A stretch of 36,900 nucleotides of DNA from sequence record PP925825.1. One strand, written 5' to 3'. How positions within the stretch are numbered: the stretch's first letter is position 1; each line of letters starts with the position of its first letter. Under the pieces are notes generated by a model, which saw only the letters and a program-made list of their open reading frames with translations, was not told the origin of the DNA and made no database searches. Both the position numbers and the translations under genes were made by a program. Below, one piece after another: positions 14,305 through 14,951 of the stretch. This stretch comes from Escherichia phage SaltyDalty.

Positions 14305-14350
14305 CTAGTCCCCCTCTTATTGCCGTGAATCCTCTCAGTGATGAGGGGAA

Positions 14351-14379
14351 TAAAAAAAGCCCGCTTTTGAAGGCGGGCT
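14351..14379 (-). terminator. Intrinsic terminator, tR'-like, just upstream of the lysis genes
   Basis: 7-bp stem AGCCCGC/GCGGGCT (14358-14364, 14373-14379), 8-nt loop, T-run on the minus strand. Confidence 0.6.
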
Positions 14380-14535
14380 AATGAGTGACTATTAGTAAGT
14401 AAGGTAGGTAGTCGTGAGTCTTGCTAACTGACCTGAGTGAGACAGTATCGGGCTGATTCACTATAGGTTCAGGAGAACCCCCAGAGAGGTAGGCGCATCT
14501 CACAACTCAAAGCGTAGCAGCAGATTACAAAACCA

Positions 14536-14565
14536 TAAAAAAAGGCCTGCTTTTTATAGCAGGCT
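14536..14565 (-). terminator. Intrinsic terminator in the late leader
   Basis: 7-bp stem GCCTGCT/AGCAGGC (14545-14551, 14559-14565) followed on the minus strand by a T8 run. Confidence 0.6.
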
Positions 14566-14880
14566 CTCAAGGAATTTGAAACTTATATTGTTATTGTCAT
14601 GGTGCCGGGTGCCTCCCGGTGACTCAACCACAGTCAGCAAAGCCGCGCGCATACCTGCAGATAGCAGTTGACTGGAACGCCCTTTCGCTTAGAAAGGATT
14701 CACCACAATAATAAGTTACGACTAATCCATTGTAGCGGTCAATACATCATCGCCATGAGTCCTCTCAGAACGAGGGGAAACAAAAAAGGCCACCCATTGG
14801 CAGCCTTAGAAAAGCAAAAACCCCGCCGAGGCAGGGTTTCAATGATTAATTTCGTTTGGACGGTATCTTCCACGATTAGA

Positions 14881-14910
14881 AGCATACAGGACAGTTTTAT
14901 GCAAAGTCAA
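14881..14910 (-). promoter_or_regulatory. Candidate late promoter (PR'-like) downstream of the Q-like gene
   Basis: Minus-strand TTGACT (14910-14905), 18-bp spacer, TATGCT (14886-14881); position consistent with a Q-dependent late promoter; not verified. Confidence 0.25.
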
Positions 14911-14951
14911 CACTAACGTGCAAAAAAGTGTCGCTATTTGTTCCGATCACA

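Follow-up and report, generated by a model that had tools for sequence, protein, structure and literature searches.

The late region of Escherichia phage SaltyDalty (PP925825.1) was analyzed between the gene of its late antiterminator Q and the first gene of the lysis cassette. The window is the whole stretch of 36,900 nucleotides, and all features and coordinates of the late region refer to its minus strand. The Q gene is followed by a promoter block with a putative Q-utilization site, the terminators T1 and T2, the gene of a small RNA (sRNA) of the STnc100 family with its terminator T3, a second conserved unit with terminator T4, and the leader of the holin gene. An earlier note on this DNA had described about 370 bp between two copies of a repeated element as non-coding. 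In this interval of ~370–430 bp, the covariance-model scan for structured RNAs that the note suggested found a full-length gene instead. The Rfam family STnc100 (RF02076) matched positions 14737..14534 over the entire model (1-206 of 206) with 59.3 bits and an E value of 8.8e-12, the gathering score being 47. This was the only Rfam match in the whole window.

From the Rfam match, the minimum free energy (MFE) fold and the RNAalifold consensus, the sRNA was delimited to ~170 nt at 14537..14708. Its MFE fold has an energy of -58.4 kcal/mol (z -2.6). RF02076 is characterized by a conserved 5′ sequence, UGGUGAAUCC, and a conserved 3′ sequence, CACCGGGAGGCACCCGGCACCA, joined by a closing helix, P1; both are present in SaltyDalty, and P1 (14708-14701 with 14604-14597) forms in the MFE structure. 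The core further comprises P2 (14697-14681), P3 (14667-14655), P4 (14643-14636 with 14629-14622), two pseudoknot strands (14675-14669 and 14636-14630), and P5, the invariant hairpin ACCGGGAGGCACCCGGCA (14619-14605). After the core follow an AU-rich linker with the candidate seed AAUUCCUUGAGAG (14576-14564) and T3, which was found in the terminator scan (14564-14545 plus seven U). A Rho-independent terminator 30–60 nt after the core is typical of the family, and T3 lies at this distance; a terminator is present within 146 nt of the core in 108 of 157 family variants (median distance, 55 nt). The pseudoknotted 5′ core sealed by P1, the single-stranded AU-rich linker and the Rho-independent terminator would together give the layout of an Hfq-dependent trans-acting sRNA. 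The seed of the SaltyDalty sRNA may lie in the linker, as published for the related RNA PasD.

A promoter-like site for the sRNA was located at 14713..14742, with TTGACC at 14742-14737, an 18-nt spacer and TAACTT at 14718-14713. The hexamers are conserved and the spacer is variable in HK639, Fraca and SaltyDalty, and the homology of the cassette among relatives starts at ATTGAC. Promoter-like hexamers also occur at a fixed distance upstream of the family RNAs in general. The family-wide upstream promoter score was 7.96 compared with 5.95 at random positions, and values of at least 9 were reached in 25% versus 0.9%. At STnc100 promoters of Salmonella LT2, an RpoD ChIP-exo signal has been reported (PMC10794520). 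In PasD1, the mapped 5′ end coincides with the first base of P1, and the linker contains the seed (PMC8550237, Table S6 and Fig. S5). By analogy, the start of the SaltyDalty sRNA was placed near 14706.

To examine the architecture of the core, a family sample was compared that comprised ~95 distinct variants for a pseudoknot test and 49 representatives for RNAalifold. The RNAalifold consensus recovered P1, P2, a GCG/CGC helix and P5. P1 covaries (GC 27/AU 19 at one pair), the GCG/CGC helix shows compensatory changes (GC 30/AU 13), and P2 occurs in 14 stem versions. In the MAFFT alignment A1 the register of the pseudoknot differs between subtypes, and a per-sequence test with matched versus mismatched partners was therefore used. 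In 87 of 95 variants, the loop of P4 was complementary over at least 5 bp to the strand directly after P2 (J2/3 with L4). The mean longest helix was 6.4, compared with 4.4 for the loops of other members (p 1e-32) and 4.1 for shuffled loops (p 1e-40). The pairing was realized in 62 distinct helix versions, such as CCAGUC/GACUGG, AUCAGCA/UGCUGAU, CUGGUG/CACCGG and GCCAGGUCG/UGACCUGGC. Judged from this sequence comparison, the STnc100 core contains a covarying pseudoknot, which appears neither in the structure line of RF02076 nor in a 2026 preprint on the Pas sRNAs. P5 behaves differently. The 22-mer CACCGGGAGGCACCCGGCACCA is present in >120 IMG/VR loci, and when loci were selected by the 5′ motif alone, 98 of 135 carried it exactly, with most of the others differing by one base. 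P5 is thus near-invariant in sequence and not in shape alone. The combination of pseudoknot and invariant hairpin suggests that the core does more than base-pair.

STnc100/PasD RNAs are already known as Hfq-associated prophage sRNAs, and the SaltyDalty RNA joins this known family. STnc100 has been described as a prophage sRNA next to a "Fels-1 prophage chaperone" and as related to PasD (bioRxiv 10.64898/2026.05.13.724894), and its position in the prophage late region downstream of the antiterminator Q is also found in the literature. The SaltyDalty gene has the same context, in a prophage late region downstream of a Q gene. In the family as a whole, STnc100 occurs downstream of three different Q types. 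PasD1 and PasD2 of enteropathogenic E. coli (EPEC) E2348/69 are abundant RNAs of ~172 nt that were detected by Hfq RIL-seq and have their seed just upstream of the terminator (PMC8550237). EcOnc27/sRNA103 of enterohemorrhagic E. coli (EHEC) lies downstream of stx2B, binds Hfq and partially overlaps an STnc100 prediction (PMC12711010). These RNAs share with the SaltyDalty sRNA a location flanked by a PF03589 Q gene and the lysis genes, the 5′ GGUGAAUCC start, the length of ~170 nt, and the linker with a Rho-independent terminator. In contrast, P5 of PasD is truncated (AGCGGGAGGCGCC) and PasD falls below the Rfam score. The linker seeds are also different, UGUGAG in PasD compared with AAUUCCUUGAGAG in SaltyDalty, so the targets would differ as well. 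PasD1 (L124 1760-1933; L numbers denote individual loci of the comparison) keeps the 5′ GGUGAAUCC and P2. Because PasD1 with its truncated P5 is nevertheless expressed and Hfq-associated, the invariant hairpin is dispensable in at least one member.

A close counterpart of the locus is the late region of the Salmonella prophage Fels-1. Its Q is 86% identical to that of SaltyDalty, the block after the Q gene is ~88% identical, and STnc100 follows downstream of Q. Among phages of this Q type, Fels-1 reached an STnc100 score of 138 bits and a Klebsiella phage one of 88.8 bits. The SaltyDalty subtype is divergent, with a P2 of CCUUUC/GAAAGG versus CCCCU/AGGGG in Fels-1 and 59 versus 138 bits, and in SaltyDalty the sRNA is followed by the second conserved unit and a different lysis cassette. 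With a 31-nt probe, the SaltyDalty subtype was found in the genomes of four Enterobacter species, which points to an Enterobacter prophage; a 36-nt probe specific to SaltyDalty matched none of the species-representative genomes. HK639 and Fraca carry the subtype as well. The interval is 84–87% identical in HK639 and Fraca. In HK639, the whole block 14743-14310 is present with 87% identity, preceded by a different Q and a tRNA; in Fraca, the cassette is located behind the same Q and before a different holin. The best E. coli matches reached only ~83%. Two or three tandem STnc100 copies, 260–920 nt apart, were observed in L074, L018, L035, L011, L058, L055 and L169; tandem copies often belong to different subtypes, and each has its own terminator. 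L055, whose lysis genes are 97–100% identical to those of SaltyDalty, carries a second copy of the CCCCCU subtype upstream.

The Q-like gene recognized in the earlier note is an open reading frame (ORF) of 271 amino acids (15767..14952) that matches the Pfam family Antiterm (PF03589) in two stretches with an E value of 2.2e-54 and 182 bits, compared with a cut-off of 26.7. The protein could be aligned to the solved structure of lambda Q (PDB 7UBM; E 9.7e-37) with residues 1-125 and 179-256, which leaves an insert of ~50 amino acids between the two aligned blocks. It thus belongs to the lambda/P22-gp23 family, in the long, Fels-1/phi80-like form that has an additional CxxC pair. Other long forms are those of phi80, SfV, ST104 and Stx2c phages. 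The homology to lambda Q and the identity to Fels-1 Q bear out the assignment of the locus as a late regulatory region of the Q type. Four DnaJ-type CxxCxGxG repeats had been proposed for this protein. Three of them, CHSCSGTG, CDACDGMG and CERCSGNG, are canonical, whereas the fourth, CRCGGKG, has the form CxCxGxG. Residues 179-215 (SARCRCGGKG...CERCSGNG) align with the zinc finger of lambda Q (GARCRDCHGTG...CGRCKGVG). CHSCSGTG and CDACDGMG flank the ~50-residue insert and could, judged from their sequence, provide a potential second zinc site. The label DnaJ-type is descriptive only. The DnaJ cysteine-rich domain (PF00684, DnaJ_CXXCXGXG) scored 26.9 bits in Q, below its cut-off of 32.7, and no stretch passed alone, so the likeness is one of motif spelling that is common to lambda Q, which has two such motifs. 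Moreover, the Q motifs align with the lambda zinc finger, and Q has no J domain or other DnaJ region. The CxxCxGxG spelling also accounts for the database names "Fels-1 prophage chaperone" and "molecular chaperone" of such Q genes.

Directly after the Q gene, a block resembling the lambda late promoter pR′ was identified at 14870..14951 by promoter scan and by conservation in relatives. It contains TTTTTGCACG (14926-14917), a -35 hexamer TTGACT (14910-14905), the spacer TTGCATAAAACTGTCCTG, a -10 hexamer TATGCT (14886-14881) and a second -10-like element, AATCGTGG (14877-14870). The promoter-like hexamers previously noticed downstream of Q thus correspond to one sigma-70-like promoter in the scan, TTGACT-18-TATGCT at 14910-14881. 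A stretch of ~80 nt, starting at the Q stop codon and reaching about +10, is nearly invariant in SaltyDalty, Fraca, Fels-1, the Klebsiella phage, AsXd-1 and L083, with the sequence TTTTTGCACG..GTTGACTTTGCATAAA..TGTCCTGTATGCTTCT(A/G)AT(C/T)(G/A)TGG. Where measured, the Q proteins of these relatives are 70–86% identical to SaltyDalty Q. Beyond the block the sequences diverge, and a terminator is retained in every relative examined. TTTTTGCACG, 7 nt upstream of the late -35 hexamer, varies as little among the relatives as the promoter does, and may act as an UP-like element or belong to the Q-binding site. The Aeromonas phage AsXd-1 (L171, MH178096), with Aeromonas salmonicida as recorded host, has a post-Q block ~90% identical to the Enterobacteriaceae-type block, which means either an unusual host range or an unusual host assignment.

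In lambda, the Q-binding element and the sigma-dependent pause are located in the promoter spacer and start-site region. The sequence of lambda pR′ is TTGACT-17-TAAATT-tgactc-AACGATGGG. The SaltyDalty block shares with it the position directly after a homologous Q gene, the identical -35 hexamer, the spacer motif ATAAAA, and at the start site a -10-like element that has A in position 2 and T in position 6 and is followed by GG. As these elements lie where lambda has its Q-binding and pause sequences, we infer a Q-utilization (qut) site in the block; the near-invariance over ~80 nt is what a putative qut site should look like at the sequence level. A terminator shortly downstream and then the lysis genes complete the similarity to lambda late control. 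The differences concern Q, which has 271 amino acids and an insert of ~50 amino acids carrying the second CxxC pair compared with 207 amino acids in lambda, the promoter spacer (18 versus 17 nt), the pause-like element, which is 3 nt closer to the -10 hexamer, the first terminator, which is located at about +35 to +65 instead of +194, and the presence of four terminators and an sRNA cassette before the holin gene.

A scan for hairpins followed by a U-tract gave 6 terminator-like sites, compared with 1.7 expected in shuffles, and the late region contains four of them. The two minus-strand terminators reported previously are real and correspond to T3 and T4, but T1 and T2 directly after the promoter had been missed. 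T1 (14808..14840, hairpin 14840-14817) has a 10-bp stem and a U-rich tail and is the analogue of the lambda terminator tR′; it is predicted to end a constitutive RNA of ~60–65 nt, the analogue of lambda 6S RNA. T2 (14780..14807, hairpin 14807-14786) has a 9-bp stem and a T-run. It aligns with the terminator that ends STnc100 RNAs of another subtype in L030 and L027 and is therefore regarded as an orphan sRNA 3′ end. T3 and T4 had been taken for late terminators under control of Q. Since the interval is an sRNA cassette in which each part has its own terminator, they are primarily terminators of the sRNA, although Q-modified polymerase must pass all four. The equation of STnc100 itself with a pR′ leader or 6S RNA equivalent was rejected, as a separate late promoter and terminator precede STnc100 in 14 of 14 loci read in detail.

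The origin of the cassette was traced with the repeated element. A repeat of ~34 bp had been described; it is real and longer, with 43 nt (14791-14749 versus 14361-14319) and 31/43 identities. Among 200 dinucleotide-shuffled sequences, the best-matching pair of 43-mers had on average 24.2 identities (sd 1.0, maximum 27), and 0/200 reached 31. The GC hairpins beside the two copies are T2 and T4. Copy A (14749..14791) consists of the tail of T2 and a relic of the holin leader (TTTCCCCTC..CTGAGAGGACTCA), and copy B (14319..14361) of the tail of T4 and the functional holin leader. In phage mEp390, a T1-like terminator and T2 are followed by a single copy of the element and then immediately by the same holin gene. 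This phage hence represents the empty site, and the proposed recombination scar is thereby supported. The leader of copy A is identical in mEp390, where it stands directly before the holin gene, and in L030, where T2 and the leader directly follow another STnc100 subtype and precede the holin. The occurrence of the leader is tied to the PF16931 holin rather than to T4: Fraca and L010, which have another holin, lack it. The two copies are thus the holin leaders of two lineages that recombined inside the leader. A five-codon ORF, ATGGCGATGATGTATTGA (MAMMY; 14739-14756), starts 4 nt after the Shine-Dalgarno (SD)-like GAGAGGA of copy A, and its stop codon overlaps the -35 hexamer of the sRNA. Fraca has MAMMH at the same place (L002 2475-2492). 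The ORF is probably a relic of the holin leader as well.

The holin gene with its SD sequence GAGGGGG (13909..14317; SD 14316-14310, ATG 14304) is the first gene of the lysis cassette. Its product belongs to PF16931 (2.4e-38), and a PF05449 holin and a GH108 endolysin follow. T4 had been placed about 45 nt before the holin ribosome-binding site; the terminator stands, but its U-tract ends at 14351, with the SD sequence about 35 nt further on. The PF16931 (131 amino acids) and PF05449 (114 amino acids) genes overlap by ~50 nt ahead of the endolysin gene (13617-14304) and may encode a holin/antiholin pair.

Between T3 and T4, a second unit of 157 nt (unit 2; 14380..14536) forms a conserved 3′ domain with the islands CUGCUACGCU, GGUUCUCCUGAAC and GUGAAUCAGCC. 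It is closed by T4 (14351..14379, hairpin 14379-14358), which has a 7-bp stem with 6 GC pairs followed by seven U. Unit 2 is conserved in 11 distinct relatives and T4 in all relatives compared. The fold of unit 2 has a z score of -1.8, and no family matched it in the Rfam scan. A distant alignment is possible with the 3′ tail of those STnc100 RNAs in which no internal terminator is present, and unit 2 is therefore taken as a second domain of the same gene system; an isoform of ~355 nt ending at T4 is possible. An assignment of unit 2 as PasA or PasC was tried and rejected: in E2348/69, PasA is encoded on the strand opposite PasD2, and no similarity was found.

The slot between Q and the lysis genes carries different inserts in other phages. 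The place where T1 abuts T2 in SaltyDalty marks the position at which others have an STnc100 subtype or a small ORF. Small protein-coding morons were observed between T1 and T2 or STnc100, with 64 amino acids in Fraca (L002 2202-2396), and an ORF of ~63 amino acids starting MEKGFYWLQHNG lies between T1 and STnc100 in L025 and L010. A true tRNA is located in the slot in HK639 (L001 2088-2159; 63.9 bits with the Rfam tRNA model), as are tRNA-Ile, tRNA-Thr or tRNA-Gly in E. coli prophages whose Q genes are similar (H44-H46). With stx, tRNAs and small ORFs at the same place, the true tRNAs in particular identify the slot between Q and the lysis genes as a general cargo site.

Morons of lambdoid phages are independent promoter-gene-terminator units between phage genes (Hendrix and colleagues). 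The SaltyDalty cassette corresponds to such a unit in having its own promoter-like site, of predicted activity, and the terminators T3 and T4, in being absent from the collinear mEp390, and in its location between Q and the lysis genes; it differs in that the cargo is an RNA and not a protein. We read the region, with a probability of roughly 70%, as the ordinary late switch of a lambdoid prophage similar to Fels-1, probably of an Enterobacter, in which recombination has placed an RNA moron. The conserved promoter block directly 3′ of the Q gene would be the place where Q is loaded onto RNA polymerase. Without Q, transcripts from the late promoter would end at T1/T2 and yield an RNA of ~60 nt, the analogue of lambda 6S RNA; with Q, polymerase would pass T1, T2, T3 and T4 and reach the holin, endolysin and structural genes. 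The self-contained unit between T2 and the holin leader would comprise the promoter-like site, the ~170-nt RNA of the STnc100/PasD family and T3, followed by the conserved 3′ domain ending at T4. Most likely, the lysogen transcribes the sRNA from the promoter of the cassette, with T2 upstream and T3/T4 downstream serving as insulation, and during lytic growth Q-modified polymerase would read through the cassette. The 43-nt repeat would be the leader of the PF16931 holin present twice, with two phage lineages joined inside it, copy A being a relic and copy B serving the holin. Direct comparison provided the family assignments and the anatomy, identified an empty-site relative, and showed the covariation as well as the conservation of the promoter block. 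From these we infer the action of Q at the late promoter, the transcription starts, the Hfq dependence and the targets in trans.

Several points weigh against this reading. Both RNA species, the short T1 RNA and that of 170 nt, are predicted, as are the transcription starts. The -10 hexamer of the sRNA, TAACTT, is weak. The pause-like element follows the late -10 hexamer after 3 nt versus 6 nt in lambda, which makes the exact geometry of Q loading uncertain. The SaltyDalty copy has two substitutions compared with its subfamily that lead to a U-U mismatch in P4 and a shifted register of the pseudoknot, and the closely related copy of Fraca stays below the Rfam gathering score. The candidate seed AAUUCCUUGAGAG had no target within the window, where the sRNA gene alone matched. 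Finally, the near-invariance of P5 and GGUGAAUCC is left unexplained by a simple model of a base-pairing sRNA.

This last point is the basis for an additional, tentative proposal, to which we give rather low odds. The core, consisting of P1, P2, the GCG/CGC-closed domain with an internal strand that pairs with the P4 loop, and the hairpin ACCGGGAGGCACCCGGCA, may be a dedicated pseudoknotted binding module that recognizes a conserved cellular or phage partner, be it a protein, a ligand or an RNA.

The same near-invariance, reminiscent of a binding pocket, could also indicate that the core acts in cis on the late transcript instead of being a free sRNA, for instance as a processing or stabilizing element, as an RNA of the HK022 put type that modifies RNA polymerase, or as an aptamer that governs read-through into the lysis genes. 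The core is always found in the leader of the lysis operon in sense orientation, its P1-closed pseudoknotted domain with linker and terminator resembles a transcriptional riboswitch, and in a subgroup (L008, L020, L101) no terminator is present between the core and a further ~190 nt. However, members of the family are found as abundant, discrete RNAs of ~170 nt whose ends have been mapped and whose partners depend on Hfq, tandem copies have a terminator each, and no Rfam riboswitch or other family matches the core. A riboswitch-type antiterminator that coevolves with the core was also tested for. The core showed no excess complementarity to the 5′ strand of its own terminator (-11.37 kcal/mol) compared with those of other members (-11.01 kcal/mol; p 0.18), and this candidate was rejected. 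Overall, action in cis appears unlikely.

For the repeated element, a function of its own was considered, in which a hairpin or anti-SD switch controls translation of the holin and the duplication provides a second site. CCCCUC is the exact complement of GAGGGG in the holin SD sequence, and all PF16931-holin leaders examined contain CCCCUC, GAGAGG and GAGGGGG without change, in keeping with an element that travels with this holin. The leader fold, however, is no more stable than shuffles (z -0.02 in SaltyDalty and +0.32 in mEp390), its MFE structure uses a local CCUCA/UGAGG hairpin instead of the anti-SD pairing, and copy A has no downstream gene but only the five-codon ORF. The leader sequence also shows no variation that could reveal covariation of this pairing. 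We regard such a switch as quite unlikely and retain the explanation of the repeat by recombination within the holin leader.

That the repeat is indeed a recombination product would also fit an interval that is only filler, with T3 and T4 as extra late terminators that tighten the Q-dependent control of lysis; four serial terminators would cut the leak into the holin gene. Yet the interval gives a full-length match to a curated RNA family, is conserved in HK639 and Fraca at the identities given above, and shows compensatory changes in several helices and the pseudoknot among ~95 variants, and mEp390 works without it. The Rfam match, the pseudoknot test and the RNAalifold covariation largely refute this reading, which we consider very improbable. 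Hardly tenable is a tRNA-derived or tRNA-mimicking core serving as decoy or processing signal, with P1 (8 bp) and P5 (5 bp) stacked like acceptor and T arm: the 3′ strand of P1 does follow directly after P5, and true tRNAs do occur in the slot in E. coli prophages with similar Q and, in HK639, between Q and STnc100, but the P5 loop has 5 nt and not 7, the 3′ end runs into the linker and terminator and not into NCCA, and, in line with the earlier note, which had seen no tRNA-like sequence in the interval, ARAGORN found none in the window and the Rfam tRNA and transfer-messenger RNA (tmRNA) models gave no match even at E<=10 (13800-15300).

For Q antitermination, the understanding is unchanged, as the late switch itself is ordinary. 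For annotation, an apparently empty spacer in a prophage late operon turns out to be an sRNA cassette. The family occurs in virulence-associated prophages, with PasD in EPEC and EcOnc27 downstream of stx2 in EHEC, and variants have been reported to be predictive of hemolytic-uremic syndrome (HUS). With SaltyDalty, the family now includes Enterobacter-type prophages, in which the subtype is distinct and the candidate seed is different. The pseudoknot, the invariant hairpin and the cassette-like exchange at the junction of tR′ and holin leader are without mention in the Rfam model or the cited papers on the family. If the core is indeed a binding module, STnc100 RNAs would have a second function beyond Hfq-mediated pairing, such as the sequestering of a host factor, a decoy role or the sensing of a signal in the lysogen.

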